Source of the DNA: Nitrospirota bacterium
Lineage (GTDB): Bacteria > Nitrospirota > 9FT-COMBO-42-15 > HDB-SIOI813
Direction of reading: 5' to 3'
DNA: 64,000 nucleotides
NCBI GenBank assembly: GCA_020846775.1
Contig: JADLDG010000035.1
Location: 31,569 to 95,568, forward strand
Shown: one piece after another, positions 6,842 to 49,984 of the stretch
How positions within the stretch are numbered: position 1 is the stretch's first letter
Layout: each line of letters begins with the position of its first letter
Notes under the pieces: model-generated
The model's database searches: none
The model's input: only the letters and a program-made list of their open reading frames with translations
Told to the model about the DNA's origin: nothing
Translations under genes and position numbers: made by a program

Positions 6842-6938
6842 AAACAGGTCTTCCAAATAAAAAGTTGCATTATTACCGTATCTTATGATAGTATTACGAG
6901 TCTTTTTATTCAAGGTTTTATTGATCAGGAGGGATAAA

Positions 6939-7130: not shown

Positions 7131-7131
7131 T

Positions 7132-7530: not shown

Positions 7531-8119
7531 TTAACGCCTGCATTACCTCACCCTTTTCCAATGCCCGGTCCCTTAACATATCACGCTGTCTTTTAAAGAT
7601 GTACTTGATGAGGGTCTCTCTGTCATCCTCTTTTATTGTCAGGAAATTTATGACTGTCTCAAAATAGTTTTTTTCATCAGGTATTAGATCCTCTGACATA
7701 TCTCGTCTTATTACCTCGCCTGTTACAAAGATACTTGCAGGCGGGATAAAGGGGAGAACAATACATAAAATCATTAGCTGACCTGCCGTTGCAGGTGTAT
7801 CCAGGTGAATTCTTATACCAGAGGCACTGATACAGACATCCTGTTCCTTTGGTATCTCAACTATGGTCCTGCATTCAGGCGCTACGGTCTCAATAAGAAT
7901 ATCCATCTTCCTGTGTAAATCAATAATATGATTTAGCAACTTTGTATGATTCTCTTCTAATTCCTCTGAGGGCAGCAGTTGCGGGTATTTATTCCAAATA
8001 TAAGGGAAATATCTTTCAGGTCTGTTATTTTCTGCGATATCCTCTGCTGTAACAAACCTGTAGGCAAGCGGAATCTTATCTATGATCCTTACATTCTCTC
8101 TTCTGTCTATTGGCAGCAT
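7514..8119 (-). CDS. PilZ domain protein (putative c-di-GMP receptor)
   Basis: RxxxR motif (DRRENVR) at the N-terminus and a D/NxSxxG-like motif (CISASGIR). Its start overlaps the stop of the upstream GGDEF gene by a few nt, and its 3' end overlaps ridA. Confidence 0.55.
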   Translation of the reverse strand: MLPIDRRENVRIIDKIPLAYRFVTAEDIAENNRPERYFPYIWNKYPQLLPSEELEENHTKLLNHIIDLHRKMDILIETVAPECRTIVEIPKEQDVCISASGIRIHLDTPATAGQLMILCIVLPFIPPASIFVTGEVIRRDMSEDLIPDEKNYFETVINFLTIKEDDRETLIKYIFKRQRDMLRDRALEKGEVMQALSENDE

Positions 8120-8127: not shown

Positions 8128-9276
8128 TTAAAACACGAATGGTCCTAAAAATGAGTTGTCATGAGTAAATAAACGTCCACTCACCTCAATCCTGTTCCTG
8201 CCAGACTTCTTTGCATCATATAGGGCCTTGTCCGCCACGGAAATCATATCATCAACTGATTTGATTCCGGGACTAGGACAGCTTACAACACCAAAGCTTG
8301 CTGTCACCCTGATATTCTGCTCCTTAAAAAATACCGGTTGTTCTTCCAGAATTCTCTTAAGTCTTTTTGCGGCAAAAAATGCCTGTTCAACAGTTGTTTC
8401 CGGAAGGATAATTGCTATCTCATCTCCACCATAACGTGCAGGAACATCAATCTCTCTCAAACTCCTTATAAGCCTGTTTGAGATTTCATGTAATACAGCA
8501 TCACCTGCCTGATGTCCATGCTGATCATTAATATGCTTGAAATTATCCACATCTATCATCAGGAGTGAAACAGGATTTTGATACCTCATGGTGCTCTTAA
8601 ATGTTCTGGTAAGGCTCTCATAAAAATATCTGTTATTGAATAACCCGGTAAGGCTGTCAGTCGTTGCAAGTTCCTTTACTTCACGATGAATCTCTGAGTT
8701 CCTAAGTGCCAGCGCAAGGGTACTCACCAGCATAGATCCAAGATTATGCTCGTATCCTGTAAATTGTTTATCCATCTTCCTAATCAGGTGCAATGCTCCT
8801 ATTCTCGTATCACCAATTTCGATTGGATAACACAACCTGCCTGACAACTTTGAATTAAAACCCAAGCTCTCAGTCTGATCAGTTTTAATGCAATTTATTT
8901 CAACCTTGTAATCATCATTATCATCGGTCTCAACAACCTTCTTTATTGTTTGCAAGACATACTTCTTTATCTCTTCAGTATCTGCTACATATAACTGCAT
9001 TGTTGAGAATACCCATAACTTTTTTTGTTTGAATAGGACGACACAGAAAACATCGTGGGGCACTATATCCTGCATAATTGCAGCAGCGGAGGAAATGATT
9101 TTGTCGGAATCCAATGTACTTACTATTGCCTTACTCAGCTCATTTAAACAGCTTAAATCATCTCCCCATTTCTTCAAAGCATTCTTCTCTTCCAGAAGCT
9201 TCTTCTTTTGAATTCTTAATGCACTGTTTACCTTCTGAAGTTTCTTATATAGTTCCTGATCTATCTTTTTTTCCAT
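8128..9276 (-). CDS. GAF domain-containing diguanylate cyclase (GGDEF)
   Basis: N-terminal coiled-coil and GAF-like region. The C-terminal GGDEF domain has RYGGDEIAIILPE, so the final F of the signature is replaced by I. Confidence 0.75.
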   Translation of the reverse strand: MEKKIDQELYKKLQKVNSALRIQKKKLLEEKNALKKWGDDLSCLNELSKAIVSTLDSDKIISSAAAIMQDIVPHDVFCVVLFKQKKLWVFSTMQLYVADTEEIKKYVLQTIKKVVETDDNDDYKVEINCIKTDQTESLGFNSKLSGRLCYPIEIGDTRIGALHLIRKMDKQFTGYEHNLGSMLVSTLALALRNSEIHREVKELATTDSLTGLFNNRYFYESLTRTFKSTMRYQNPVSLLMIDVDNFKHINDQHGHQAGDAVLHEISNRLIRSLREIDVPARYGGDEIAIILPETTVEQAFFAAKRLKRILEEQPVFFKEQNIRVTASFGVVSCPSPGIKSVDDMISVADKALYDAKKSGRNRIEVSGRLFTHDNSFLGPFVF

Positions 9277-17307: not shown

Positions 17308-17667
17308 CTACTCCCCTCCATCTGCATTGCCTCCCAGTGTCCGTGTGACTAATTCACTGATTTTTTTCTTATCCTTCGACGAAATATTTACGAATTTTAT
17401 ACCCATACCGGGAACAAAGTCCCTTGCAAATTCTATTCTGCTCCATACTACCAATCCTTTCATAACAGTCTTGTCAATATCTCCCGGCAGGAACAATTCC
17501 ATTGTAATGACATCGTCTATTGAGAACGGGTGAAAAGTCTCTATAAACAGACCACCTCCCCCGATAACTGAGGTGAAACCCTCCTCTATCACTATGCTTT
17601 CAGGACTATGGTACTTTATAATCAGGGAAAGAGGAGCGCGTAAAAATCGTCGTCGTTCCTTATTCAT
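17308..17667 (-). CDS. PilZ domain protein (putative c-di-GMP receptor)
   Basis: RxxxR (RRRFLR) and DxSxGG-like (TSVIGGGG) motifs. 119 aa. Immediately downstream of purF. Confidence 0.65.
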   Translation of the reverse strand: MNKERRRFLRAPLSLIIKYHSPESIVIEEGFTSVIGGGGLFIETFHPFSIDDVITMELFLPGDIDKTVMKGLVVWSRIEFARDFVPGMGIKFVNISSKDKKKISELVTRTLGGNADGGE

Positions 17668-17681
17668 ATATCAGAATTACT

Positions 17682-19058
17682 TCATACGTCAAAAAGACCA
17701 AGCTGATTTATTTCGTCATCACTAAACGGAATAGGATAATCCCCATTAAAACAAGCAACACAGAATTTATCCGGCGGGTTGCTGACGGCCTTTAACATCC
17801 CCTCTATACTCAGATATGCGAGGGTATCTGCCGTTATTTGCCTGCCGATATCTTCAACCTCCATATTCGAGGCAATAAGCTCCCTTCTTGTAGGTGTATC
17901 TATACCATAAAAACAGGAGTATTTTACAGGCGGTGATGCTATCCGCATATGAACCTCGACTGCCCCTGCCTCCCGTATCATTGTTACTATCTTCTTGCTT
18001 GTGGTACCCCTGACGATGGAATCATCCACAACTACGACCCTTTTTCCTTTCAACACTTCTTTAACAGGGTTCAGTTTCAGTCTTACGCCAAAGTTTCTAA
18101 TGGATTGCTTTGGAACAATGAATGTCCGACCAACATAATGACTCCTGATAAGTCCGTTGTCAAACGGAATACCGCTGCCCTCGGCAAAGCCCATGGCAGC
18201 AGGGGTTCCGGAGTCAGGAACAGGGATAACAATATCAGCATCAACCGCCGATTCTTTAGCCAGTTCTACACCCATCTTCTTCCGTATACTATTGACGCTC
18301 TCACCATACACATAACTGTCAGGACGTGCAAAGTAGATATGCTCAAAAATACAAAACGCCTCATTTACTTTATCAAATGGCATATATGATGTCAGTCCAT
18401 TATTATTTATGACTACAACTTCTCCCGGCAGGATGTCCCGAATAAAACGTGCGCCTATCAACTCAAAGGAACTTGTCTCGGAAGAAAGTACAAGAGACCC
18501 GTTGATTTCACCAAGTGACAGTGGACGAAAACCATAGGAATCCCTTACACCAATCATCTCCTTATCCGTAAGTATCAGCATCGAGTATGCGCCTTTTACC
18601 TTTTTCAGTGCATCTATTATTCTATCAAGTATAGTCTTCTCTCTGGAAAGCGCTATCAGGTGGACAATGACCTCACTGTCAATAGAAGACTGAAAGATTG
18701 AGCCATGTGCCTCCAGCTCACGCCTGAGAAAGGATGCGTTGACTAAATTACCGTTATGGGCCAGTGCAAGAGAGCCCATTGCAAAGTTTACAACTACAGG
18801 CTGCACATTTTCGATGATACTATCGCCGCAAGTTGAGTATCTGTTGTGACCTATAGCGCTCCTCCCCTTCAGAAATTCGAAATTATCATCCTTGAAGATC
18901 TCGGAAACAAGTCCCATCCCTTTTTTGCTGTAAAGTTTACTGCCATCACATGATACTATTCCTGACCCTTCCTGCCCTCTGTGTTGAAGACCATGGAGCC
19001 CCAGATATGTGAGGTTTGCTGCCTCGTTATGATTAAAGATGCCAAATATTCCGCACAT
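17682..19058 (-). CDS. purF: amidophosphoribosyltransferase
   Basis: Catalytic N-terminal cysteine in MCGIFGI. PRTase motif VVVVDDSIVRGTT. Start set at MCGIFG, so the ORF-track N-terminal extension was discarded. Confidence 0.9.
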   Translation of the reverse strand: MCGIFGIFNHNEAANLTYLGLHGLQHRGQEGSGIVSCDGSKLYSKKGMGLVSEIFKDDNFEFLKGRSAIGHNRYSTCGDSIIENVQPVVVNFAMGSLALAHNGNLVNASFLRRELEAHGSIFQSSIDSEVIVHLIALSREKTILDRIIDALKKVKGAYSMLILTDKEMIGVRDSYGFRPLSLGEINGSLVLSSETSSFELIGARFIRDILPGEVVVINNNGLTSYMPFDKVNEAFCIFEHIYFARPDSYVYGESVNSIRKKMGVELAKESAVDADIVIPVPDSGTPAAMGFAEGSGIPFDNGLIRSHYVGRTFIVPKQSIRNFGVRLKLNPVKEVLKGKRVVVVDDSIVRGTTSKKIVTMIREAGAVEVHMRIASPPVKYSCFYGIDTPTRRELIASNMEVEDIGRQITADTLAYLSIEGMLKAVSNPPDKFCVACFNGDYPIPFSDDEINQLGLFDV

Positions 19059-19066
19059 ATATGACC

Positions 19067-21286
19067 CTATTCTTCCCCAAGATATCCCTGCATAGCATTT
19101 TCCCATGCGTCAGCTATGACATCCACCGGCATATCAATTAAAACAGTTGTTTTATGTCGAATCACGAGTTTGTCTCCCACAACTTTTCCAATGACGGTAA
19201 AAGGAACCCCTCTGTTCACGGCAACTCCCTCCAACTCTTTAACCCTCTCAGGGCTTACAGTAATTATAATCCTTGATTGTGTCTCCCCAAAGAGAATGGC
19301 ATCCGCTCTTATTTCATCTGAAAGCCCTATTTCTGCTCCCATATTTCTCTTATCATCAGGCCTTATGCAACACTCGGAAAGGGCCACCGCCAGTCCACCC
19401 TCTGATGTATCATGTGCTGACTTTATTATACCCTGTTTAATTCCGTAAAGACAAAGTTCCTGCACATTTTTTTCAAGGTCAAGGTCAAGAAATGGAGGAA
19501 CTCCCCTGACCTTATAATGTATTTCCCTGAGATATTCACTCATTCCAAGTTCTTCAATATTGTTCCCTAAGAGGATTATTATGTCCCCTTCTTTTTTAAA
19601 GTAGTGCGTCATGCATTTAGATATATCTTCAATTATACCAGCCATTCCAATTACTGGAGTTGGATAAATGGATATATCGTTTGTCTCATTATAAAAACTT
19701 ACATTACCGCTTATAACAGGTATGTTAAATTTCCTGCAGACTACTGATATGCCTTCTATTGCCTGCTGAAACTGCCACATAATCTCAGGCTTTTCAGGAT
19801 TTCCGAAGTTGAGACAATCTGTGAGCCCAACAGGTTCGCCTCCTGCACATACAATATTTCTCGCGGCCTCTGCAACGGCTATTGCACCTCCGGCATAAGG
19901 ATCAGAGAAACAGTAACGACTGTTACAGTCTGTTGTAATGGCTATCCCTTTATTAGTCCCCTTTATCCTGATAACAGCAGAGTCAGAGCCAGGGCCAACG
20001 ACGGTATCTGTGCGCACCATATGATCATACTGCCTGTATACGCATTCTTTGGATGCAATCGTGGGGGAAGAGAGAATCGTCAGGAGAGCTTTATTCAGAT
20101 CCTCAGGTACCGGGAGATTGTCCATGTCAAGGTCATGAAGGATATCAAGATAAGGCGGAGGGGCCAGGCTCCTGTCATAAAGCGGGGCCTCATCAGTCAA
20201 GGACTCAATCGGGATTTCTGCAACCAATTCATCCATGTTAATTACCCGGATCTTTTTGCTACCAGTAACCTCACCTATAACAACTGCATCAAGGTCCCAT
20301 TTATGAAATATCTCCATAACTTCCTTTTCTTTTGCAGGTTCAGTCACTATCAGCATCCTTTCCTGAGATTCTGACAGCATTACCTCATAAGGGGTCATAC
20401 CGGATTCCCTCATGGGGACACGGTCAATATGAATATCAATGCCAGTTCCTGCCCTTCCTGCCATCTCGCAGGATGAACTTGTAAGCCCTGCGGCCCCCAT
20501 ATCCTGTATACCGACAATGAGTCCCTTGTTCATGACCTCAAGGCAAGCCTCGAGAAGAAGCTTTTCTGTAAATGGGTCTCCAACCTGCACTGTAGGCCTC
20601 TTTGCATCGGATGTTTCATCAAACACATCAGAAGCCATTGTAGCGCCATGAATACCGTCCCTGCCTGTCTTTGATCCAACATAAATAACAGGATTACCAA
20701 CACCGCTTGCCACGCCTTTAAATATCCTGTCCTTTTTGACTATTCCAAGGGCAAATACATTTACAAGTATGTTGTTGTTGTAAATCTCATCAAAATATAT
20801 TTCTCCACCGACTGTAGGAACCCCCATACAATTACCATAGCCTGCGATTCCACTTACTACACCGGTGAAAAGATATCTGTTGCGAGGTATCTTTATATCA
20901 CCAAAACGAAGTGAATTAAGTATTGCTACCGGCCTTGCCCCCATAGTGAAAATATCCCTCAGGATACCACCCACTCCGGTAGCAGCGCCCTGATATGGCT
21001 CAATAAATGACGGGTGATTATGGCTCTCCATCTTAAAGACTGCTGCAAGTCCATCACCAAGGTCTATAATCCCGGCATTCTCGCCGGGTCCCTGCAATAC
21101 CCTGTCACCTTTGGTAGGAAACTTCTTCAGGTGTATTCTTGAGCTCTTATAACTACAGTGCTCGCTCCACATTACAGAAAAGATACCCAACTCTACAATG
21201 CGAGGTTCCCTTCCAAGGATCTTTAATATCCTCTCGTATTCATCAACAGTAAATCCATGTGATTCTATTATTTCATTAGATAACAA
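19067..21286 (-). CDS. purL: phosphoribosylformylglycinamidine synthase subunit PurL
   Basis: 739 aa with duplicated AIRS-like domains typical of PurL, sitting between purQ and purF. Confidence 0.9.
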
Positions 21287-21299
21287 GGGTATCCCTCAA

Positions 21300-22007
21300 T
21301 CATGATTTATGCTTCATCTTTTCCACATAATATACCATTGACTCAAAAAGGGTATATCCATCCGTCCCGCCAAGTATCTTTTCCCCGCATCGCTCAGGAT
21401 GCGGCATCATTCCCAGCACATTTCCCTTATCATTGCATACCCCTGCAATATTACCGATTGATCCATTAGGATTAAAATCATCATCTGTATTTCCATCATT
21501 CCCCGCATATCTGAAAACAATCTGATTATTCTTCCTAAGCTGAGAATATGACTCCTGGTCTATGTAATAATTACCTTCTGCGTGTGCAATCGGCATCTTT
21601 ACAATCTGATTTTCAAAATATTTAAGGGTAAAAGGTGTATTAATATTATCAACTCTTAGATAAACATCCTTACAGATAAACTTTAAGGATTTATTCCGTA
21701 ACATCACACCTGGAAGGAGCCCTGCCTCGAGGAGTATCTGAAAACCATTACATATGCCAAGGACAAGCCCTCCACTTTCTGCAAATTGCCTTACAGCTGT
21801 CATGATCGGGGAAAGCCGGGCTATAGATCCCGTTCGAAGGTAATCACCATAAGAAAAACCGCCGGGCAGGATGACTGCATCATATTGAGAGAGATCATTT
21901 TCCTTGTGCCATACAAAACTTGCAGGCCTGCCTAATACATGCTTTACTATATTATAGCAATCATGGTCACAATTAGAACCGGGAAATACGATTATGGCAA
22001 ATTTCAT
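21300..22007 (-). CDS. purQ: phosphoribosylformylglycinamidine synthase glutaminase subunit PurQ
   Basis: [16 protein letters not shown] start and a GICNGFQ glutaminase nucleophile motif. Start set at MKFAIIV. Confidence 0.9.
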
Positions 22008-22069
22008 TTTTAAAGAAGATTCGCTGCGAATCACACACCTTTTCGTTTATTATAACAGGAATTAAACTT

Positions 22070-22705
22070 TTACGGCAAGACCAAATTACACTGCTGGCTT
22101 TTATTGATAAAATCAACTATTGCTTCATTGAAATAATCTGGCAGAGGCGGCAGGATTACTGAAGTTCGCTGCCGATACAGTGCCCTGCCTTTTTCAATCT
22201 CTTTACTCAGGATATCATAGAATGTACCATCTGCAGCGCTCATATACGCTGTTTCATGGTTATAATGCACAATATCTGAAACAATGGCCCGTGCCAATCT
22301 CTTCATATCCTCTTTTATCTGCATATCCGAATCGCATGTGTAATACTTACAAACTGCCGCGAGGAGTTTAGTACTGACCAAATCTCTGTCAATAACATCA
22401 TCTGCATACTGATGCGCATCCTTACTGCTTTGAACATCGTACCCCGTTATCAGGACGACTCTTGTATTCCTGAAACGCTCCACACCCTTGATTATCTCGC
22501 ATGGTGAAAATCCCATTATCCTGGATAGTCCGGAGTCTGCGATTACTACAGCAGGACAGTACGATTCAATCAAACTGAAAAGCATATGCTGGTTTAATGC
22601 GGAAATAAATCTGAACCATTTAGGTTCAAGGATACGGGTAATAATTTCATTCAACCCCGGCTCAGTCGTGCATATCAAAATTACATCTGACGACGCATAA
22701 CTCAT
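22070..22705 (-). CDS. atypical/degenerate receiver (REC-like) domain protein with unknown C-terminal domain
   Basis: N-terminal roughly 120 aa follow the REC topology (DVILICTTEPGL ... PAVVIADSG ... VVLITGYD ... KLLAAV) but lack the canonical acidic DD pocket. The C-terminal roughly 90 aa are unknown. Its stop overlaps the cheW start (ATGA). Confidence 0.4.
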   Translation of the reverse strand: MSYASSDVILICTTEPGLNEIITRILEPKWFRFISALNQHMLFSLIESYCPAVVIADSGLSRIMGFSPCEIIKGVERFRNTRVVLITGYDVQSSKDAHQYADDVIDRDLVSTKLLAAVCKYYTCDSDMQIKEDMKRLARAIVSDIVHYNHETAYMSAADGTFYDILSKEIEKGRALYRQRTSVILPPLPDYFNEAIVDFINKSQQCNLVLP

Positions 22706-23202
22706 ATGTGCTCCATCCTGGTCTCAATCAATAATATTAAGTTATTATTGAATTTAAAAGCTGCCTTAAAATATTTTAAGCTCTCTTTTCCAATAAAATC
22801 AGGAACAGGCAAATATCTGCCTAAAGGTACAGACACGATCCCTTCAACTGAATCAGCAAGTATACCTATAAAGAAATCATCATAATGCACTATCAGAATA
22901 CGAGTGCTCCCGGTGACATTTGTAGCTGATCTTCCGATATATTCCATAAAATCAAGCACTGGAATTACTATCCCTCTTAAAGGCAAAACACCTTTGACAT
23001 ATGAGCACGTGTTGGGAACTGCTGTAAGCCCTGTGTAGTGAATCACTTCCTTTACCATTGAAACTCCCATGGCATATTCCTGACGGGATAGCCTGAAAAT
23101 CAGACATTTTTCTGCTGAATATTCAGAACTGATATCTGAGCTGCCTGCGATAGATGTGTCGTCTTTTCCCCGTAAATTAGGACGATATGTCATAATTGTC
23201 AT
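22702..23202 (-). CDS. cheW: chemotaxis coupling protein CheW
   Basis: 166 aa. CheW-like domain pattern (LIFRLSRQEYAMGVSMVKEV ... GVLPLRGIVIPVLDF ... RILIV). Confidence 0.75.
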   Translation of the reverse strand: MTIMTYRPNLRGKDDTSIAGSSDISSEYSAEKCLIFRLSRQEYAMGVSMVKEVIHYTGLTAVPNTCSYVKGVLPLRGIVIPVLDFMEYIGRSATNVTGSTRILIVHYDDFFIGILADSVEGIVSVPLGRYLPVPDFIGKESLKYFKAAFKFNNNLILLIETRMEHI

Positions 23203-23208
23203 AAACCT

Positions 23209-24135
23209 TCATATCCCGCTGCCATATGCAACTCGGTTTCTGCCATCACGTTTTGCCCTGTACAATGCCTGATCAGCCTTATTAATCAATGCATCACAAC
23301 CCTCCTTGGTGTCATCAGGGAATGTCGATACTCCTATGCTTGCTGTCACCGGTCTGCCACCATTCAACTCAATCAGGAGCGGGTTATCTTCTATGATTTT
23401 TCGGATTCTTTCAGCCACAATGTGAGACCCGATAACTGTATTTTGTGACAGGACGATAATAAATTCATCACCTCCATATCTAACTGCAAAATCATATCCT
23501 CTAACCATTACCTGCAGAAGTTTTGCGACTTCCTTGATAATTTCATCACCACGCTGATGTCCAAAGGTATCGTTAATGTCTTTGAAATTATCAATATCCA
23601 TGATTATCAGGGAAAGCTTAAGGTTAAAACGATCACTTCTATTATATTCTCTCCTGAGTGTATCGTATAGATATCGCTGATTATATAAACCAGTTAGTGA
23701 ATCTACTACAGTTACATGTTCCAACTCTGCTATTTTGGTTTTTAGTTCTTTCTGAAGGCTTTTCATCCTCAATAATATACTTACCCTTAAAGACAATTCA
23801 TGCGGATGAAATGGTTTAGTCATGTAATCTATGGCCCCGCTTTCGAGGCCTTTAATCCTGTCATATATTTTCCGGTTGGAAGACAACATGATAACCATGA
23901 TATCCTCAAACCTCTTTTCCTTGTTTATCATTTCCATTAACCGGAATCCATCCATTCCCGGCATCACTACATCGCAGACTATCATATCAATATTTTCTTT
24001 AGATAAGATCTTTAAAGCGCTGAAACCATCATTTGCCTCAAAATAACGTACAAACAGGTTTGCATTCCTGAGACTTTCGATTACTTTCTGTCGCAAAAGT
24101 GGGGAATCATCAATTATTAATACACTGTTATTCAT
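23209..24135 (-). CDS. response regulator-diguanylate cyclase (REC-GGDEF, WspR/PleD-like)
   Basis: REC domain (LIIDDSPLLRQ, phospho-acceptor D in IVCDVVMPGMDG, conserved K in TKPF). GGDEF domain with an intact GGDEF signature and an RxxD I-site five residues upstream (RGYD). Start set at MNNSVLIIDD. Confidence 0.8.
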   Translation of the reverse strand: MNNSVLIIDDSPLLRQKVIESLRNANLFVRYFEANDGFSALKILSKENIDMIVCDVVMPGMDGFRLMEMINKEKRFEDIMVIMLSSNRKIYDRIKGLESGAIDYMTKPFHPHELSLRVSILLRMKSLQKELKTKIAELEHVTVVDSLTGLYNQRYLYDTLRREYNRSDRFNLKLSLIIMDIDNFKDINDTFGHQRGDEIIKEVAKLLQVMVRGYDFAVRYGGDEFIIVLSQNTVIGSHIVAERIRKIIEDNPLLIELNGGRPVTASIGVSTFPDDTKEGCDALINKADQALYRAKRDGRNRVAYGSGI

Positions 24136-24288
24136 TAAACGACTTTTCGGTAACTGATTGAATATCTTAAGAAAGAGAACACGGTAAAAGCGCAAACCCG
24201 ATTAGTCGGGAAATCACTCCGGGGAATTAGTTAACTGCCTGAGAAATCGTCTGAATATTGTTCTAAAGTGGATACAGGATAGTCTATT

Positions 24289-26376
24289 TCAGGCAAAAAC
24301 TCTTTCTGCAAGTCCGATGACGTCTATAACTGGTACAACCTTTCTGGCATCTATCTCTGCAAACCCTTCAATACCCTGAATTTCTTTTAGGAACTTACCG
24401 GGAGGTTTAATAAGGATCTCTCTCTGACCATGTATTTTATCAACTATAATACCCATTCTCTTCTGTGCCAAGCCCGCTATAATTACGTATTCATTCTTGC
24501 TGTATGACTCCCAGTGACCTTCATGGTATTTCAGGACATCCTTTAATCTAACCAGAGGCAAGAAATCTCCTCTAAGGTTAATACTTTCTCTATCCCTGAT
24601 AATTTTTATTTCGCATTCCTTTAAGCTGAGATTTTCCGATATCAAATTTACAGGTATTGCAAATTCCCGTCCTGACTCTGAAACTATCAGAGCCCTGACT
24701 ATAAGCAATGTTACAGGAAGTGTAATACGGAAAGTAGTTCTCTTACCATAAACTGTTTCAACTTCTATCATACCAGACAAATCCTCTATGCTCTTTGCTA
24801 CCACATCAAGGCCTACCCCTCTGCCGGATATGTCATCTATTGTGTTTTTTGTGGTAAAGCCCGGCATAAAAAGCATCTTCAGGAGTGTCTTTTCATCCAT
24901 TTCATCATTTCTAAGCAGACCCATGATAAGCGCCCTGTTTTTAATAACATCAAAATCAATACCACATCCATCATCTTCAATGTCAATCACCACAGTCCCA
25001 TCTCTCTGCACAGACGTAATTCTTATTGTCCCTGCAGGATCCTTACCTCTTTTTCTCCGTACTTCATCATCCTCTATACCATGATCAATTGCGTTACGTA
25101 TTATATGCATTAGTGGGTCTGCAATTTCTTCTATAATTGACTTGTCCAGTTTAGTATCACCACCGGACACTTCAAACTTTATTTTCTTCGACAAGTCCTT
25201 TGAAAGCACTTCCACTATTCTATTTAGCCTTGTGTACAAATACTCTATGGGTACCAACCTTATATCTATGAGTTTATCTCTCAAGAATGCTATTTTCTTG
25301 TGCAGCTGCCTGGTAGATCTATGAATGTCAAGGAAAACCAGGTCTTTGCCGTACTTCATCTTCAGGTCATTCATCAGGTGTGTTACAGTACTATTTAATA
25401 ATAATATTTCTCCTACGGTATCAAGCAGTGTCTCCAGCCTTTCAATATCAACCCTGACTGTCTTGGCTATGCTTTTTACCGTCTGTGGAGGAGGTTCGAC
25501 CTGATCAATAATTTGTTCCTGTATTTGAGTTTCAAATGGGTCACCTTCCAAGTCTATATTCTGGATACTTATTATTTCACCAGAAAATAGAGGATCCCGC
25601 TCACTAACCCTGTCTTCCGCAACTTGTTCAAGAAACTCCTGCCCCTGCATCATTTGAGTCCCTGAGACCAGTTCATAACGACGCAAAATATCTTCATGTT
25701 GCGAGGAATAAAGAAGTTCAAAAGATGCCATGTCATCCTCGGAAAACCCGGAGACTGGCATTACTGTGATAACCTCTCCGTAGCATGTAAGATTCGCCCT
25801 GAGTTCTGTCATCGCATCATCAACAGTGTCAATATGCGTTCGTACAATAATCCTGAAAATCCTGCGCCCTTCTTTAACAGACTCCATAAGTCTGTGTTGC
25901 TCAAATTCAGGCAGCCTCCCTAACAGAGCATACGGTAATCCGGCAAATCTATTGTTCTTAAAAGTTTCATCATGTATCCCGCTATCAAGGTATAGCCCCA
26001 TTTTTTCAATTACCGGCCCTATCTCAGTATACTCTTCTCCCTGATCATTAATATTGTTAAGGAGCTCCGTAAAGACATCAGCAACTTCAAATAACGTATC
26101 TACAACTTTATAATTTAGCTGAATCCTGCCGAACCTGAGACAATCCAACAAATCTTCGAGGTTGTGACTTAATGAGCTTATCCTTGGAAACCCGGATATC
26201 TCAGAAATTCCTTTCAAGGTATGGATTTCACGAAACACAGCATTAACTACATCCGGATATTGTACCGTTGCTGTATTGCATGTTGATTTCAGTATATAGA
26301 GGTTTTTGTTGAAATTACTGACAATATCCTCTGCCTCAGCCAGGAAGTCCTTGTGATTATTATATTGTTTATTCAT
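24289..26376 (-). CDS. cheA: CheA-type histidine kinase (Hpt - atypical linker - dimerization - HATPase - CheW-like)
   Basis: Hpt motif HTLKG. H-kinase dimerization region (VRVDIERLETLLDTVGE). HATPase_c (DHGIE...DDGCGID, GRGVGLDVV). C-terminal CheW-like domain. A roughly 200-aa segment between Hpt and dimerization is not a canonical P2. No fused REC. Confidence 0.8.
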   Translation of the reverse strand: MNKQYNNHKDFLAEAEDIVSNFNKNLYILKSTCNTATVQYPDVVNAVFREIHTLKGISEISGFPRISSLSHNLEDLLDCLRFGRIQLNYKVVDTLFEVADVFTELLNNINDQGEEYTEIGPVIEKMGLYLDSGIHDETFKNNRFAGLPYALLGRLPEFEQHRLMESVKEGRRIFRIIVRTHIDTVDDAMTELRANLTCYGEVITVMPVSGFSEDDMASFELLYSSQHEDILRRYELVSGTQMMQGQEFLEQVAEDRVSERDPLFSGEIISIQNIDLEGDPFETQIQEQIIDQVEPPPQTVKSIAKTVRVDIERLETLLDTVGEILLLNSTVTHLMNDLKMKYGKDLVFLDIHRSTRQLHKKIAFLRDKLIDIRLVPIEYLYTRLNRIVEVLSKDLSKKIKFEVSGGDTKLDKSIIEEIADPLMHIIRNAIDHGIEDDEVRRKRGKDPAGTIRITSVQRDGTVVIDIEDDGCGIDFDVIKNRALIMGLLRNDEMDEKTLLKMLFMPGFTTKNTIDDISGRGVGLDVVAKSIEDLSGMIEVETVYGKRTTFRITLPVTLLIVRALIVSESGREFAIPVNLISENLSLKECEIKIIRDRESINLRGDFLPLVRLKDVLKYHEGHWESYSKNEYVIIAGLAQKRMGIIVDKIHGQREILIKPPGKFLKEIQGIEGFAEIDARKVVPVIDVIGLAERVFA

Positions 26377-26389
26377 CTTTCCAACTTTG

Positions 26390-27409
26390 TTACTTTGATG
26401 CCATTAATACAATACCTGCTACCTTGATAAAAGCCTCAAGGGTTGAAGTATCACCTATTTGCCCCCTTCCAGGCAGATTGTCTCCATATAGTATCGCTGT
26501 AACCGTTTTATCTTCTATTAAAGGAGCTACGAAGACCTCTTCAGGTAATCCTGCGCCAAGATGTTTAAAAAGGTATGAATTCCAATCAGATTCAGGCAAC
26601 TGCCCTTTGTAACTCATTCTATTAGTTATAACATCTTTAATTACAGAAGGCTTATCAAGGGGAATACAAAGCCCCTCTATCCTTATTTCAGCTGAATCCA
26701 ACGATATTCCAACTTGTCCAAACCCAACTGCCTTCTCTCCGTCAAGCTTGAATATAACCGCTCTGCTCATCATTTCTCCTGCAAACCTCAGAAGCATGAC
26801 TAACATCTCAGTACTCGCTGCAGGAACTGACAGCTCTTCAATCAATGAAATCAGGGTGTTGGGATAAGCTCCATACTCTACGGCTGAAGATCCTGAGGGC
26901 ATGTTTTCTATAGGTACTTGAACCATCTTTTTGCCCTCGTCCCTCAGTCTGGTTCCTTCGAGCAGGATATACTCAGTACTCACACTTATATTTTGAGGAA
27001 TTTTAGGCATTGGCTGTTCCGGTTCAAAGCGAAACACCCCTTCTTCCCAAGACAACATTTCATATATGATTTCTTTTATCTGCGACTGGATAAAGGATTC
27101 AAGTGCATCTTTTTCAATCAACTTGTTCTCTGTCAGTATGGCGCCCAAGGGTTCATAAATCTTCCTGTCCCGTTGAATCCTCAAGGCTGCTTCGAGGTCG
27201 CCTTCCATCAAGACACCTTCCCTGATCAGCCTTTCTCCAAGTTTTTCTTTGCCATGCATTGAGGCATACAGCATCTTCCCGTCGTGAAATACAACTCTCC
27301 CACTTCCGGCAGGGCTTTCTAATTTCAAGATTCCGCTTTTCTTGCTCAAATGGACTATCTGAAGTATATCCGGAAGGCTAAGATCTGATAAGTGTCCTTC
27401 GAGGCTCAT
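26390..27409 (-). CDS. DUF4388-like N-terminal domain plus GAF-like domain protein
   Basis: N-terminus LSDLSLPDILQIVHLSKKSGILKL matches, from memory, the DUF4388 domain seen in Che-associated proteins. The C-terminal half resembles a GAF fold. Sits between purS and cheA. Confidence 0.4.
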   Translation of the reverse strand: MSLEGHLSDLSLPDILQIVHLSKKSGILKLESPAGSGRVVFHDGKMLYASMHGKEKLGERLIREGVLMEGDLEAALRIQRDRKIYEPLGAILTENKLIEKDALESFIQSQIKEIIYEMLSWEEGVFRFEPEQPMPKIPQNISVSTEYILLEGTRLRDEGKKMVQVPIENMPSGSSAVEYGAYPNTLISLIEELSVPAASTEMLVMLLRFAGEMMSRAVIFKLDGEKAVGFGQVGISLDSAEIRIEGLCIPLDKPSVIKDVITNRMSYKGQLPESDWNSYLFKHLGAGLPEEVFVAPLIEDKTVTAILYGDNLPGRGQIGDTSTLEAFIKVAGIVLMASK

Positions 27410-27441: not shown

Positions 27442-27687
27442 CTATTTTTCAATTTCATATCGGAAATCCTCTACAATAGTATTAGCGAGGAGCTTATTAC
27501 ACATCTCCTTAATCTGAGAATCCAAATTCTCCCCGGATGTATCATCGAAACTTAACTCTATATACTTTCCTATCCTGACATCAGCAACAGATGCATACCC
27601 CAGAGTCTTTAATGAATGTTTAACCGCCTTACCCTGCGGATCCAAGATACCATTTTTTAACGTAACATATACTCGTGCCTTCAACAA
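27442..27687 (-). CDS. purS: phosphoribosylformylglycinamidine synthase subunit PurS
   Basis: 81 aa. MLKARVYVTLKNGILDPQGKAV is a typical PurS sequence. Confidence 0.85.
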   Translation of the reverse strand: MLKARVYVTLKNGILDPQGKAVKHSLKTLGYASVADVRIGKYIELSFDDTSGENLDSQIKEMCNKLLANTIVEDFRYEIEK

Positions 27688-27730: not shown

Positions 27731-29020
27731 TCAGAATATCCTGTTAAAAATATAATCTACATGCTTCAAATGATAATCCATATCAAAGCATGACCTTACA
27801 TCAGCCTCACTCAACTGCGACATTACATCTGAATCATGAAGAAGCAGATTCTGAAATTCCTCGCCTTTGTTCCATGCACTCATGGCATTTTTCTGTACCA
27901 GCCTGTATGCCTTATCCCTGTCCATTCCTTTTCTTACAAGCTCGAGCAATACCCTTTGTGAATTAATAAGTCCACGGGTCAAGTTTAGATTCTTCATCAT
28001 ATTTTCAGGGTAGACGACCATATCCCTCATGATACTTATCAACCTGTTGAGCATATAGTCTATAAGAATCGTACTATCAGGCATAATAATGCGTTCCGCT
28101 GAAGAGTGGCTGATATCACGCTCATGCCACAGCGGGATGTTCTCCAGCGCCGCAACACAATTGGACCGGACAATCCTCGCCAGGCCGCAGATATTTTCAG
28201 ATCCTACCGGATTCCTCTTGTGCGGCATTGCAGAAGAACCCTTCTGTCCTTCGGTAAAAGGTTCCTCAACCTCCAGCACCTCTGTTCTTTGGAGATGCCG
28301 GATCTCAGTAGCAATTTTATCAAGTGTACCTGATATAATGCCGAGCGTACACATGAATTCGGCGTGCCGGTCTCGCTGCAAAATCTGGGTAGATACGGGC
28401 GCTGGTTTTAAGCCCAGCTTTTGACACACATATTCTTCAACAAATGGTGGTATGTTGGCAAAGGTTCCAACCGCACCTGATATCTTGCCACAGGCAATCG
28501 TATCCCTTGCCCTGACAAGGCGATCTATATTCCTCTTTGTCTCTTCGTACCATAAGGCCATTTTAAGCCCAAACGTCACCGGCTCTGCATGAATGCCGTG
28601 AGAACGTCCCATCATGACGGTATTCTTGTAGACATTTGCCTTTTCCTTTAACACATCCAGAAGCCTGTACAGATCATCAAGGATAATGTCTGACGCATCC
28701 ATTAATTGCAGGGCAAGCCCTGTATCAAGGATATCAGATGATGTCAGTCCCAGATGGAGGTATTTTGCTTCATCACCGATACACTCGGAAACTGCAGTGA
28801 GAAAGGCTATAACATCATGTTTAACATCAAGTTCAATCTCATTGATCCGTTCCGTATTTATTCTACCCTTTTCTTTAATTACTTTGACTGCACCCTCAGG
28901 TATCTCACCCTTTTGGGCCAATGCCTCACAAACCAGAACTTCAATGGCAAGCCACTTACTATATTTATTTTCCGGTTCCCATACATGCTTCATCTCAGGC
29001 AGTGCATAACGATCTATCAT
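27731..29020 (-). CDS. purB: adenylosuccinate lyase
   Basis: 429 aa. Fumarate lyase superfamily signature (GSSAMPHKRNP). Confidence 0.9.
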   Translation of the reverse strand: MIDRYALPEMKHVWEPENKYSKWLAIEVLVCEALAQKGEIPEGAVKVIKEKGRINTERINEIELDVKHDVIAFLTAVSECIGDEAKYLHLGLTSSDILDTGLALQLMDASDIILDDLYRLLDVLKEKANVYKNTVMMGRSHGIHAEPVTFGLKMALWYEETKRNIDRLVRARDTIACGKISGAVGTFANIPPFVEEYVCQKLGLKPAPVSTQILQRDRHAEFMCTLGIISGTLDKIATEIRHLQRTEVLEVEEPFTEGQKGSSAMPHKRNPVGSENICGLARIVRSNCVAALENIPLWHERDISHSSAERIIMPDSTILIDYMLNRLISIMRDMVVYPENMMKNLNLTRGLINSQRVLLELVRKGMDRDKAYRLVQKNAMSAWNKGEEFQNLLLHDSDVMSQLSEADVRSCFDMDYHLKHVDYIFNRIF

Positions 29021-36673: not shown

Positions 36674-38755
36674 TTAATCACTATTTATTATACCTTCAAT
36701 CTTCTTCAGGAGTTCTTCCATGTTGTAAGGTTTAATAATATAATTTCCCCCGATCTTCCTGATTAATGCATCAGCCCTCCCCCCAAGCACATCACCCGTA
36801 GAAAAAAGCATCTTGTTCTCCATATACGGCTTATTTTTGCTTACCCATTCGAATACCCCTGCTCCATCTATCCCCGGCATCTTAAAATCACATATGATCA
36901 TGTCGAAATCTTCATTATTCAATTTGCTGATTGCCTCATTACCTGAATTTGCCCCTTCAACAATATATTTGTTCCCTACTATGTGTATCATTACGTCAAG
37001 CTGGTCTTCTTCATCATCAACTATCAGAATTTTCTTCAGCTTCACATCAGGAACATTAACAACTTCTTCAATAGAGGTCAGAAGAGAGTGATACACTGCA
37101 TCTTCTGCAGAAGGTATGGGCATTCGAATAGTAAATTGCGTCCTGCCGTTTTCACTGCTGGCAGTTATGTCGCCGCCATGCTCACGTATTATACCGTAAC
37201 ACAGACTGAGTCCAAGTCCGGTGCCCCTGCCAACTTCTTTGCTTGTATAGAATGGATCAAAGATTTTGCTTATAGCCTCCTTAGGTATTTCCGGTCCATT
37301 GTTAATAAATTCAATATTGATTTCATCATCCTTTACACTCGATTTAATTTCCAGAATTCCACCGGCACCCCCTTTTTCTTCAATGGCATCACAGGCATTG
37401 TTGATAATATTTACAAAGACCTGTTCAATCTGTCTTTCATCAGCAAATGTCAACGGCATAGTATCATCAAGATCTGACTTAAGGGTTATGGCAGTTGATG
37501 ACAGCCTGTAATGAAGCAGTGATATTACACTTTGCAGTATACTATTAATATTAACAGAACTTTTGTGAGGTTTATCCTGTCTTGAAAAGCGCAACAATGA
37601 TTCAACAATACGTTTTGCGCCAATTGCCGAACGATTTACGGTCTTTATCAGCTTTAATTCATTCTCCTCAAGCGATGACTGCTGGAGAAGTTCAGAATAG
37701 ACTAATATAGGGAGGAGCCTGTTATTGAGTTCATGCGCAATGCCCGAGACAAAAGTAACAAGTGAAGCGAGTTTTTCAGTCTGCAAGAGCCTTTTCTCAA
37801 GCATCTTACGCTCAGTAATATCCTTTGCCACCCCGAGTAAACCAATTATCCCCTGACCGCTGCTCCTAAGGGGGGTAAAACTGCACAATGTCTGCCATAC
37901 GGTTTCGTCCTTGCCTTTAAGATCCATCTCAAGGGTCTTCTTCCCACCCTGTTTGAGCACCTGAACAAAGGCACGTATAGCCTCCTCACTCATTAACAGG
38001 GTATCAAACACCTGACCGACAAGTTCATCCTTAGTATATCCAAGGTCCTCCACTCTTTTATTAAGGAAGATGAATCTGCCTTCATTGTCTATGGTAAATA
38101 TTATATCACTGGCGTTCTCAAAGATATTTTTCAGATATTCGTGAGACTCCTCTATTTCTTTAGTCCTCTCAATAACCGTCAATTGCAGGTGTTTGTTTAA
38201 CAGCTCAAGGTCTTTCTGAAGACGGACAAGATTTATAAGATGGCCAATAGTTGTAGAAAGAATAGAGAAGACCTTCTCATGGTGCTTACTGAAAAACTTA
38301 TGTTTACTGTGAGAAAGGTTTAACACACCCAAACACCGCCCGCCGGCAGAAACCGGCAGACAGAGTAAAGACCCTATGTCAACGGCTGATTTTAGTTTCA
38401 CAAATCTGACATCGTTATCTACATCTGATATGAGTATAGGGGCATTGTTTTTTGCAACCATACCTGCGACCCCTTCGCCTACTCTGAATGCCCTGTCATG
38501 AACCTCCTCATTCCTATCTGCCTCCGGAGGTGAAACGCCTGCCTGATTTACTACGTAATTACCACTATCATCGAGAAGCATAATTGAACAATGTTCAAGG
38601 CCAAGCTCATCAGACAGTATTTTCACAACCTCATCACATATAGACTTCACGTCGGACTTCTTATTCAGCATCGCGACAATACGCTGGAAGGCTGATAGAC
38701 TTTGCATGACGTCGCTGTAAAACTGTTGTAGTTCTGAATTAATATCCAAACTCAC
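36674..38755 (-). CDS. hybrid sensor histidine kinase (GAF-PAS-HisKA-HATPase-REC)
   Basis: N-terminal GAF. PAS region. H-box (IAHELNNRL). HATPase N/G boxes (INNACDA ... GRGTGLGLS). C-terminal receiver (KILIVDDEEDQ ... MIICDFKMPGIDG). RBS TAAGGAGTG upstream. Confidence 0.75.
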   Translation of the reverse strand: MSLDINSELQQFYSDVMQSLSAFQRIVAMLNKKSDVKSICDEVVKILSDELGLEHCSIMLLDDSGNYVVNQAGVSPPEADRNEEVHDRAFRVGEGVAGMVAKNNAPILISDVDNDVRFVKLKSAVDIGSLLCLPVSAGGRCLGVLNLSHSKHKFFSKHHEKVFSILSTTIGHLINLVRLQKDLELLNKHLQLTVIERTKEIEESHEYLKNIFENASDIIFTIDNEGRFIFLNKRVEDLGYTKDELVGQVFDTLLMSEEAIRAFVQVLKQGGKKTLEMDLKGKDETVWQTLCSFTPLRSSGQGIIGLLGVAKDITERKMLEKRLLQTEKLASLVTFVSGIAHELNNRLLPILVYSELLQQSSLEENELKLIKTVNRSAIGAKRIVESLLRFSRQDKPHKSSVNINSILQSVISLLHYRLSSTAITLKSDLDDTMPLTFADERQIEQVFVNIINNACDAIEEKGGAGGILEIKSSVKDDEINIEFINNGPEIPKEAISKIFDPFYTSKEVGRGTGLGLSLCYGIIREHGGDITASSENGRTQFTIRMPIPSAEDAVYHSLLTSIEEVVNVPDVKLKKILIVDDEEDQLDVMIHIVGNKYIVEGANSGNEAISKLNNEDFDMIICDFKMPGIDGAGVFEWVSKNKPYMENKMLFSTGDVLGGRADALIRKIGGNYIIKPYNMEELLKKIEGIINSD

Positions 38756-39011: not shown

Positions 39012-39428
39012 CTATTGTCCCACCAATTTTTCATTAAGTTCAGATAAACCATTTTTACCTTCTAAAAGAATTGGATTCAATTCATACTCTATAAGGTCCG
39101 CGAGGGTTATCCAATCCTTTCCTTCAAAGGCAGAGAGCATCTCTTTAAAGATATCAATGGATTTATTCCACGATGAAAGGGATTCTGATGAGATTTCGGA
39201 CTGTTCCAGACCATTCCTCAATTCCCTGATAAAATCCATAAGGTCGCTGAGATTGTCCATCAAGCCTGATATTTCATTAAAGACCCTCTCAGTTTGTTCA
39301 ATCCTGAGGGAATTGGCACAATCCATTAATCTGGCGCTGATCTGCCCAATACTCTCACAGGTGCTTATAATGCCATCAGTTATAGCTGTCAATAATTCCT
39401 CCCTTTTCTTAACATCTATGTTTGCCAT
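39012..39428 (-). CDS. hypothetical protein
   Basis: 138-aa acidic helical ORF. Its start overlaps the stop region of the upstream GT9-like gene (39416..39428), suggesting co-transcription with the flagellar modification island. Confidence 0.35.
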   Translation of the reverse strand: MANIDVKKREELLTAITDGIISTCESIGQISARLMDCANSLRIEQTERVFNEISGLMDNLSDLMDFIRELRNGLEQSEISSESLSSWNKSIDIFKEMLSAFEGKDWITLADLIEYELNPILLEGKNGLSELNEKLVGQ

Positions 39429-41134
39429 ACGCCTCTCCCTTCTAATGTTAAAGTGCTATTGTTGTTAAACGGTTCAATAAGCTGAATCATTGCAGAGGTC
39501 TGGATTATAAGATTCTTGTATAAGGTGCATGCTGCACTGGCTAAGACCGCTACGTCTTCGCCTTCAAGACTTTCTCTCCCGAATTTAAAGTAAATCACAA
39601 TGGGACGCAGTGCAATATTAGTAAAACCAATTATATCTATATCCTGATCAATTAGTGGTACATCTGCCCAGATATCTTTAATCTTTGCGATATCAGGATT
39701 TTCCCTCTTAGCCTCTTCCGCTATCAGGCTGACTTTTTCAAGTGCCCTCCCGGCTAATTCCTTAAGGCTCCTGAGTGCATCAATCTCATTACTAATTTCC
39801 CAACCGTTAATCCCTTCTGTCACCACTTTTGAAAAAAGGGATTTATCGGGATGATGGCGTAGCGGGGAATTCTCCGGCACAATGGAAGCAGCATTGTGAT
39901 CAAGGGTCTGCAGCCACACCAGTCTGTACAAGTGACGGAAAAAGTCTTCCCTGGTAATGGGCCTTTTGATCCTTGGTATGTACTCTAATAATCCATCATC
40001 AGAAAAGACGGCCTCATTAACCTGCATACCATCCCATAAAGGGGAGTCATCAACCTCCTTTAAACGACCATCGTTATAAAGCATCTCAATAACCCTGTAG
40101 ACACCATCCACACTGACAGTGTCATTACAGATCATGTCCTGACACTTTACATGAAAGCTGCAAGGGTGACAAGGGAGATTCGACTCTATTACTATATGTC
40201 CTTTCCCATATGGGCCGGTCTCACGGAAATAGGCCGCACCGAGGGAGATTCCTATAACCCTTGTCCCTACGGCCGTCGCAATATGCATTGTACCTGAATC
40301 GTTAGAAACAAGAAGATTACAGCACTTCAGATAGGCAGCAAGCTCCTTCAGCGATGTCTTGCCGACCATATCTATTACATCGCTTCCAACCCCCATCTTT
40401 ATTTCTTCACCCAGCGCCCTTTCGCCGCCTGAACCGAAGACTATAACCTTTGCTCCAAGCCTGCTCGTTAATTTCTTTGCAAGTTCAACATATCGTCCTG
40501 TGGCCCACATCTTATGTCTGTCACTAGCGCCCGGCTGAAATCCTATTACAAAATCACCACCGCTGACCCCCGATTTCCGTAATTGCGATTTAGCGGTATC
40601 AAAGACTTCTTCCGGGACTTCCAGAAAAAGTCCTTTTTCTTTCGGCATGGCCCCACCGGCCTTAATATATATGTCACATAGATGAAAAGGATTGTAAATC
40701 CTTCCAGGGACTATATTGAAGAAATATCTTAACCATGGATGTTTTATAAGGGAATGTCCTTTATTATCAGCAATGTATCCCCTGAACTCTTTAGAGCTGA
40801 CGAGAGACATTATGGCTGCACTCACTGTTGTATGAGTGAAGTTTATCACACAGTCATACCCGACCCTGTTTATATCCTCCAACATCTCTTCCATATACCT
40901 GTATTTGCTGACAAGACCGGGGAACTCACCACGCCCGCCCGCTATGAATCCATCCATATTGAAGCTTATGAGCCTGTCTACAAATGGGATGTAGTTACAT
41001 ATTTCGGCAAAGGCGGAGTTTATCAGCAACGTAATCCTGACATCAGTGTAGGCGTCTTTTAGACCTGCCATCACAGGGGTAGTTTGAACAAGGTCTCCCA
41101 TACGTGTAAGATTGATTATCAGGACATTTTTCAT
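39416..41134 (-). CDS. glycosyltransferase family 9 (heptosyltransferase-like) fused to a roughly 230-aa C-terminal domain of unknown function
   Basis: N-terminal NVLIINLTRMGDLVQTTPV pattern typical of GT9/RfaF-WaaC. C-terminal third has no recognisable motif. Confidence 0.5.
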   Translation of the reverse strand: MKNVLIINLTRMGDLVQTTPVMAGLKDAYTDVRITLLINSAFAEICNYIPFVDRLISFNMDGFIAGGRGEFPGLVSKYRYMEEMLEDINRVGYDCVINFTHTTVSAAIMSLVSSKEFRGYIADNKGHSLIKHPWLRYFFNIVPGRIYNPFHLCDIYIKAGGAMPKEKGLFLEVPEEVFDTAKSQLRKSGVSGGDFVIGFQPGASDRHKMWATGRYVELAKKLTSRLGAKVIVFGSGGERALGEEIKMGVGSDVIDMVGKTSLKELAAYLKCCNLLVSNDSGTMHIATAVGTRVIGISLGAAYFRETGPYGKGHIVIESNLPCHPCSFHVKCQDMICNDTVSVDGVYRVIEMLYNDGRLKEVDDSPLWDGMQVNEAVFSDDGLLEYIPRIKRPITREDFFRHLYRLVWLQTLDHNAASIVPENSPLRHHPDKSLFSKVVTEGINGWEISNEIDALRSLKELAGRALEKVSLIAEEAKRENPDIAKIKDIWADVPLIDQDIDIIGFTNIALRPIVIYFKFGRESLEGEDVAVLASAACTLYKNLIIQTSAMIQLIEPFNNNSTLTLEGRGVWQT

Positions 41135-41137
41135 TGA

Positions 41138-42952: not shown

Positions 42953-42989
42953 AATTTCCTGAATTATCTTCTTCCTTTTCTCATTAAGT

Positions 42990-46767: not shown

Positions 46768-46777
46768 AACCAGCTGT

Positions 46778-49973: not shown

Positions 49974-49984
49974 TATTTCTCCCC

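Follow-up and report, generated by a model that had tools for sequence, protein, structure and literature searches.

The 64 kb window analysed here, a stretch of a contig from a Nitrospirota bacterium, carries on its minus strand (positions 22070-27409) a five-gene module that is, as judged from the encoded proteins, a Wsp-like system leading from a chemosensory (Che) kinase to the second messenger cyclic diguanosine monophosphate (c-di-GMP), with a PATAN-GAF protein and a receiver-RomX protein as accessories and without receptor or adaptation genes in cis. Its genes encode a PATAN (DUF4388)-GAF protein of 339 amino acids (aa) (26390..27409; Pfam DUF4388), the histidine kinase CheA of 695 aa with domains P1-P5 (24289..26376; Pfam Hpt, H-kinase_dim, HATPase_c, and CheW), a diguanylate cyclase of 308-328 aa composed of a receiver (REC) and a GGDEF domain (23209..24195; Pfam GGDEF and Response_reg), the coupling protein CheW of 166 aa (22702..23202; Pfam CheW), and a 211-aa fusion of a probable pseudo-receiver with a RomX-like domain (22070..22705; a weak Response_reg match, a REC fold, and a RomX profile match). 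Our overall explanation, for and against which the chances appear evenly balanced, is that the module is a pared-down version of clusters that form a widespread and as yet uncharacterised chemosensory class with an 'alternative function'. Judging from related loci, a complete cluster of this class consists of PATAN-(REC)-GAF, CheY, CheA, CheW, an sCache methyl-accepting chemotaxis protein (MCP), and a Zn-ribbon-REC-RomX protein; in this lineage, the cluster is located between purS and purQ.

The presence of CheA and CheW at this locus, as proposed in an earlier note on this DNA, was confirmed by Pfam on the minus strand. CheA has no receiver domain according to Pfam; its HTLKG phospho-His site is intact, as are its N, G1, and G2 boxes, and these motifs are also conserved in relatives. 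CheW matches its Pfam model with an E-value of 4e-24. The earlier note had also listed CheY as missing. This is correct for a single-domain CheY, which is absent from the window and from the adjoining 10 kb on the left, but it overlooks the REC-GGDEF gene with its intact receiver (23209-24195) between cheA and cheW. The open reading frame (ORF) of this cyclase opens at a TTG at 24195, and the sequence points to the ATG at 24135 as the probable start, which gives a protein of 308 aa. The cyclase matches Pfam GGDEF (E 7.5e-48) and Response_reg (E 6e-26) as well as the PleD and DgcR-like models of NCBIfam. When aligned to E. coli CheY, its receiver shows the acidic pair DD, the phospho-acceptor D, and the conserved S and K; neither the GGDEF motif nor the RxxD I-site is disrupted. 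The cyclase is also the best-conserved gene of the module within its subclade, with 90% identity to locus L012 and 72% to L004, compared with 68% and 38%, respectively, for CheA.

An intact REC-GGDEF gene between cheA and cheW makes the phospho-acceptor obvious and the module Wsp-like, with c-di-GMP as its predicted local output, and phosphotransfer from CheA to the REC-GGDEF protein is considered highly probable. In the Wsp system of Pseudomonas (WspA-F and WspR), a CheA-type kinase and CheW phosphorylate a REC-GGDEF cyclase, and the output is c-di-GMP and not flagellar switching; its parts include the membrane MCP WspA, the CheR WspC, the CheB WspF, and the hybrid CheA-REC kinase WspE. The module resembles Wsp in that a REC-GGDEF cyclase with an intact phospho-acceptor, GGDEF site, and RxxD I-site is encoded together with CheA and CheW. 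Unlike Wsp, it includes no membrane MCP, CheR, CheB, or hybrid CheA-REC kinase, whereas Wsp has neither a PATAN-GAF nor a RomX-like protein.

The absence of receptor and adaptation genes in cis is real. A Pfam scan of every other substantial ORF of the window did not find MCPsignal, CheB_methylest, CheR, CheC, CheD, or CheZ, and tblastn searches of the six frames of the window with the MCP, CheR, and CheB proteins of related loci gave a single match, which was to the receiver domain of an unrelated hybrid kinase. MCP, CheB, and CheR genes are likewise missing from the 10 kb that adjoin the window on its left and extend the covered region to 74 kb. The claim of the earlier note that these three are missing has thus withstood the searches, and an MCP with its cheB and cheR just outside the window, for which the note had allowed, does not exist on the left within those 10 kb. 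Of the components of a classical Che pathway, the locus therefore encodes CheA with P1-P5 and CheW, and no MCP, CheR, CheB, or single-domain CheY. Furthermore, the 120 best homologues of the cluster-type sCache MCP are all encoded outside the contigs of 108707, 413663, 344876, and 138385 bp that carry reduced clusters; this test is weak, as it is blind to divergent MCPs and to other contigs.

The protein encoded upstream of CheA contains a DUF4388/PATAN domain (PF14332) at aa 4-159 (E 4e-34), with a score of 117.6 bits against a gathering cutoff of 25 and 156 residues aligned across the 122-position model, so that the DUF4388 likeness proposed earlier is borne out. The 339-aa protein has 264 homologues, mostly from Nitrospirota, the best of which point to an uncultured member of this phylum as the host, and a 42-sequence family alignment (A1) was the basis of the AlphaFold model and of the family profile. 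The model, which has a mean predicted local distance difference test score (pLDDT) of 78 (80-95 in the C-terminal half), shows a four-helix insert in the PATAN domain at aa 57-119. No REC domain was matched by Pfam in the 339-aa protein, which thus does not have the PatA-type combination of PATAN and REC. Its C-terminal domain (aa 182-339; 26393..26866, minus strand) has, on the basis of the predicted structure, a divergent GAF fold. A Foldseek search against the PDB with aa ~182-339 returned almost only GAF domains among the top 50 matches (E ~1e-6, target template-modelling score 0.6-0.74), including regulatory segments of phosphodiesterases, phytochromes, and free methionine-R-sulfoxide reductase, and the earlier assignment of a GAF-like domain therefore holds at the level of the fold. 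It does not hold for the Pfam models GAF, GAF_2, and GAF_3, none of which matched the protein at E ≤ 0.1; a profile search of the product thus finds DUF4388 and not GAF. When the GAF domain alone was searched against 1.84 billion representatives, 1067 relatives were obtained (391 at E ≤ 1e-10), and the domain is located C-terminally in nearly all of the best 150 of these 1067. Among 100 sampled representatives, PATAN was found in 91, Pfam GAF_2 in 10 (best E 4e-7), and a receiver domain in 47, placed between PATAN and GAF; the PATAN-GAF protein would act downstream of CheA in these systems.

A PATAN gene also opens the Che-like Tax/Pix/Pil clusters of cyanobacteria, which encode PatA-type PATAN-REC proteins (10.1101/2021.06.11.447907; PMC11181946). 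Common to both are the two-repeat helical insert in the PATAN domain and, in relatives of the module, a CheY gene in the next position, as pixH follows pixG. In contrast to the cyanobacterial proteins, the PATAN protein of the module lacks REC and has a GAF-fold domain instead, and neither type IV pilus genes nor an MCP are found near the module, whose host encodes flagella (Pfam scan of the window ORFs).

The PATAN insert itself resembles the c-di-GMP-binding MshEN/GSPII domains of MshE, PilB, and PilF (PMC5013675; PMC11731258), in which two helical-hairpin motifs of 24 residues are arranged in tandem. The α-helical insert (aa 56-110; 27080..27244, minus strand) was delimited by profile and NCBIfam matches and contains two such motifs. 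Over aa ~52-117, the family profile gives significant matches to the solved binders Thermus thermophilus PilF (6f8l, E 1e-15), Geobacter PilB (5tsg, E 1e-8), and Vibrio cholerae MshE-N (5htl, E 6e-7). In addition, the MshE-related NCBIfam model NF053729 (c-di-GMP_motif) aligns with all its 53 positions to aa 56-110 and matches 42 of the 42 family members (best E 8e-13). The MshEN consensus is RLGxx(L/V/I)(L/V/I)xxG(L/V/I)(L/V/I)xxxxLxxxLxxQ, present as two tandem motifs with a 5-residue spacer (PMC5013675). Motif I of the module protein (K56-LGERLIREGVLMEGDLEAALRIQ79) fits this consensus, and likewise the form RLGxxLLxxGLLxxxxLxxxLxxQ, with K for R; across the family the fit is strict in 19 and relaxed in 36 of the 42 sequences, and little or no variation is seen at the RLG, G, L, L, and Q positions down to 33% identity. 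Motif II (P87-...-Q110) preserves only the skeleton, with P for R and K for G. The motifs also differ from those of MshEN/GSPII in their location, which is within a PATAN domain and not at the N-terminus of a secretion ATPase. The insert is therefore a putative binder, and the chance that it binds c-di-GMP is put at slightly less than even. Caution comes from GSPII-A, a precedent for a non-binding homologue. The likeness of PATAN inserts to the N-termini of the GspE/PilB ATPases was already known and has been read as a shared interaction surface; no statement that PATAN inserts bind c-di-GMP was found in the literature searched.

At the other end of the module, the 211-aa protein matches Pfam Response_reg at E 1.5e-5, below the Pfam cutoff, and its N-terminal half has a REC fold according to AlphaFold and Foldseek. 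When aligned to the E. coli CheY sequence, both acidic Mg-binding residues are missing and K109 is replaced by R; the N-terminal half is therefore probably a pseudo-receiver. The C-terminal 80 residues were aligned with the equivalent domains of related loci to give profile A3, which matched RomX of Myxococcus xanthus in the PDB (8zna_A) with an E-value of 4.7e-25 over 77 residues, and which defines a RomX-like three-helix domain at aa 126-206 (22088..22330, minus strand). In RomX, the helix 1 residues R11, R14, and D19 contact MglA-GTP, while helix 3 binds the receiver of RomR (10.1101/2024.02.20.581209). Their counterparts in the 211-aa protein are R136, R139, and D144, which are invariant or nearly so. 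As the top 50 Foldseek matches of the 211-aa model are receiver domains only, the RomX assignment rests on the sequence profile and the three predicted helices. Three relatives that were scanned against Pfam are longer and consist of a Zn-ribbon, a receiver, a Pro/Ala-rich linker, and the RomX-like domain; the 300-375-aa proteins with "REC + C-terminal domain" that end related clusters were also considered as CheB, an assignment that was rejected in favour of this Zn-ribbon-REC-linker-RomX-like architecture. Fusions of a receiver with RomX have been noted previously as uncharacterised (10.1101/2024.02.20.581209). In the earlier note, the protein downstream of cheW was a degenerate receiver and a candidate input. 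The degeneracy stands with the loss of the acidic pair and K109, but the RomX-like domain suggests an output or adaptor protein and not an input.

The protein is thus comparable to the RomR/RomX-MglA system of M. xanthus, as a receiver and a RomX three-helix bundle with the conserved Arg/Arg/Asp of helix 1 occur together and are genetically tied to a CheA pathway, just as Frz acts on the MglA/RomR module (10.1101/2024.02.20.581209; PMC13408092; PMC3441718). It differs in that receiver and RomX form one polypeptide and the receiver is without phospho-acceptor chemistry. Moreover, the host is a flagellated Nitrospirota and not a gliding myxobacterium. Among the related loci, one from a Desulfobacteraceae metagenome-assembled genome (MAG) (L066, 9359-9952) has an MglA-like GTPase gene directly upstream of a PATAN-domain gene. 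The encoded GTPase is 50% identical to an M. xanthus MglA sequence, and the pairing is consistent with the Geobacter annotation 'PATAN domain GTPase-activating protein'.

The context of the module was compared across 56 loci from species-representative genomes and four from metagenomes, whose ORFs were labelled with seed proteins of the window and of relatives; 42 of these loci contain a PATAN-GAF gene, and 25 of the 42 have at least 8 kb of sequence downstream. CheA is encoded within two genes downstream of PATAN-GAF in 36 of the 42 loci, the six exceptions being three contig-truncated loci and three from Desulfuromonadales, and the adjacency is seen in Nitrospirota and also in a MAG from the Deltaproteobacteria (L065). 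Of the 25 longer loci, 14 encode CheWs together with one or two sCache-HAMP MCPs, 8 have a REC-GGDEF gene, and in 11 the last gene of the cluster encodes a RomX-like domain at its C-terminus. The usual place for a stand-alone CheY gene is after the PATAN-GAF gene and before cheA. The reduced layout PATAN-GAF, CheA, REC-GGDEF, CheW, REC-RomX is common to the window and the loci closest to it, L004, L012, L013, L014, and L016 (53-83% identity). In L014 (61% identical; 5589-7269), the stand-alone cheW is gone, and 125 bp separate the cyclase gene from the REC-RomX gene behind it. Upstream of the cluster, purB or purS is found in most Nitrospirota loci and in none of the other phyla, so the linkage is a lineage-specific synteny that provides no evidence for the purine or nucleotide sensing suggested in the earlier note; sensing of purines deduced from the pur context was rejected as unsupported. 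In a Nitrospiria MAG (L027, 10001-21021), a full cluster in the order PATAN-GAF, CheA, CheW, MCP, CheW, MCP, Zn-ribbon-REC-RomX is located between purB and purQ, which argues that the insertion between purS and purQ predates the receptor loss in the lineage of the window. Sister clusters built around PATAN-REC-GAF encode CheY, CheA, CheW, a Zn-ribbon-REC protein, a HEAT-repeat protein, CheR, and CheB. In two of them (L068, 10001-21683; L069, 10001-19583), CheR and CheB are encoded beside a HEAT-repeat protein of 600-670 aa and no MCP was found within 10 kb, which raises the question of the substrate of the methylation enzymes.

Taken as a working mechanism, CheA would autophosphorylate and pass the phosphoryl group to the REC-GGDEF protein, which would then produce c-di-GMP as WspR does in Wsp. 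The PATAN-GAF protein, as the conserved partner of CheA, would read c-di-GMP through the motifs of its insert, perhaps with the GAF domain as the site for a second ligand, and would then feed back on CheA or relay its state to a motility or polarity target; cyanobacterial PATAN domains, which bind PilB/PilC, offer an analogy for such a relay. The pseudo-receiver-RomX protein would link the module to a polarity switch based on an MglA-type small GTPase, a partnership that is tentatively proposed and for which we see somewhat less than an even chance. The main input would most likely originate from a receptor encoded elsewhere and reach the kinase through CheW and P5 of CheA, with PATAN-GAF adding a modulating signal, and between a remote receptor and no receptor at all we lean slightly towards the former. 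The coexistence with MCPs in most full clusters and the REC domain in half of the family speak for a regulated effector or adaptor and not for a receptor substitute; at the level of the family, the PATAN-GAF protein looks like such an effector or adaptor of CheA.

Several observations weigh against this mechanism. The NF053729 score of the window protein is 33.3 bits and stays below the cutoff of 38. In motif II, a Pro takes the place of the guanine-stacking Arg in 40 of the 42 sequences, none of the 42 fits even the relaxed form, and the spacer between the motifs has 7 residues compared with 5 in MshEN. In 17 of the 25 longer loci there is no cyclase in the cluster, which means that PATAN-GAF cannot require a cyclase encoded in cis. 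With M. xanthus MglA as the query, a search of the window and of 68 loci yielded no MglA homologue except in L066, an MglB gene was not found in the window or the family loci either, and the role of RomR/RomX is itself disputed between guanine nucleotide exchange factor and effector (PMC13408092). Finally, the loss of cheW in L014 speaks against input from a remote receptor.

This last point leads to an alternative close to the earlier note, namely that there is no transmembrane receptor and that the activity of CheA is set directly by the cytoplasmic PATAN-GAF protein, whose GAF domain would sense a small molecule; we judge this unlikely. With the in-cluster receptors gone in the subclade, PATAN-GAF is the sole remaining protein with domains of a ligand-binding type, and the loss of the MCPs together with that of cheW in one relative makes receptor independence possible. 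The earlier proposal of a receptor-independent system is thus upheld as far as 74 kb without MCP, CheB, and CheR and a reduced layout that is stable in six species-level relatives (53-100% identity) can carry it; the absence of a close cluster-type sCache MCP orthologue from the long contigs with reduced clusters adds a weak argument. Similarly, PATAN-GAF as the sensor for CheA, also proposed in that note, agrees with the confirmed GAF fold and with a CheA neighbour in 36 of 42 loci. Both proposals, however, run into the conservation of the receptor-facing parts: cheW is kept elsewhere, and a comparison across the receptor-less subclade showed P5 of CheA to be conserved to the same degree as its P4/catalytic domain, which argues for a receptor encoded somewhere else. 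Decay of P5 in this subclade, which was also considered, was rejected for the same reason. Moreover, MCPs and two CheWs occur alongside PATAN-GAF in 14 of the 25 loci, the REC between PATAN and GAF in about half of the representatives (47/100) implies control by CheA and not of CheA, and the PATAN domains characterised in the literature are output or interaction modules. A more far-reaching version, in which a receptor-free CheA circuit has PATAN-GAF as its sole input, which binds the c-di-GMP made by the cyclase as well as a GAF ligand and closes a feedback loop or oscillator, with output to an MglA-like GTPase via the pseudo-receiver-RomX protein, appears quite improbable. If true, this flagellated Nitrospirota would have converted a chemosensory kinase into a cytoplasmic controller of cell polarity that works through a second messenger.

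It is somewhat less unlikely, though still doubtful, that PATAN-GAF binds no nucleotide at all and acts as a scaffold or localisation factor that brings CheA and the cyclase to their site in the cell, such as a pole or a motility machine, with the MshEN-like insert serving protein-protein contact as proposed for the cyanobacterial PatA-type regulators. The interpretation of the likeness to the GspE/PilB N-terminus as a shared interaction surface, the degenerate motif II, the NCBIfam score below the cutoff, the precedent of GSPII-A, and PATAN-REC-GAF relatives that lack the first Arg of both motifs would all fit such a role. It does not account well for a motif I that is (near-)invariant in 42 sequences down to 33% identity, nor for a dedicated cyclase in the module and a PilZ gene in the same gene string. 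That the module is merely a functionless, decaying remnant of a full chemosensory cluster is very improbable. MCPs, CheY, the second CheW, and the Zn-ribbon have indeed been lost relative to other Nitrospirota, but all five ORFs are intact and have their catalytic motifs, the five-gene layout is retained in relatives at 53-83% identity, and the cyclase is conserved at 70-90%.

For the proposed Wsp-like mechanism, the broader interest lies in the combination of parts, as PATAN domains, RomX-like receiver fusions, and MshEN-type motifs outside of secretion ATPases appear as fixed partners of one CheA in a family of over a thousand sequence clusters. Binding of c-di-GMP by the PATAN insert would make PATAN proteins a new branch of c-di-GMP receptors that includes the cyanobacterial phototaxis regulators, and binding of a small GTPase by the RomX fusion would mean that Ras-like polarity switches are under Che-like control well beyond the myxobacteria. 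The leads to follow are thus c-di-GMP binding by the PATAN insert, a Che-controlled RomX-type module outside of the myxobacteria, and a possibly receptor-free CheA. The reduced five-gene version offers a compact system of five soluble proteins in which each step is amenable to study in vitro.

The module is embedded in a co-oriented string of purine biosynthesis genes. Directly upstream of the PATAN-GAF gene and in the same orientation are purB (27731-29020; Pfam Lyase_1/ADSL_C) and purS (27442-27687; Pfam PurS), both on the minus strand, with a gap of 32 bp between purS and the PATAN-GAF gene; directly downstream follow purQ, purL, purF, and a small PilZ gene (17308..22034, minus strand; Pfam). 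All genes of the module share one orientation and are spaced from 4-bp overlaps, such as that between the stop of cheW and the start of the next gene, up to ~35 bp. The sole sizeable gap is a non-coding stretch of ~150 bp (24136-24288) that runs from cheA to the likely start codon of the cyclase and could house an internal promoter or regulatory element. A scan for sigma-70 promoters and terminators across 17-30 kb gave no excess of sites over shuffled sequence, and the operon structure therefore rests on gene spacing and orientation only.

The stand-alone PilZ gene of this string (17308-17667, minus strand; 119 aa) lies directly after purF, a position that is conserved in L012, L013, and L014 (61-78% identity). 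The encoded protein has the RxxxR motif, while its D/NxSxxG motif looks non-canonical by eye. Elsewhere on the minus strand, a second pair related to c-di-GMP consists of a weak PilZ protein (7514-8119) and a GGDEF cyclase (8128-9276), followed by a DUF3108 protein. The window also encodes a hybrid histidine kinase with the domains GAF-PAS-HisKA-HATPase-REC (36674-38755, minus strand), another cytoplasmic GAF sensor that is unlinked to the module. Lastly, a block of ~13 kb (39416-52988, minus strand) upstream of fliS, fliD, and the flagellin gene encodes glycosyltransferases, S-adenosylmethionine (SAM)-dependent methyltransferases, Maf-like/DUF3880 proteins, and B12-radical-SAM enzymes and resembles a flagellin glycosylation island.

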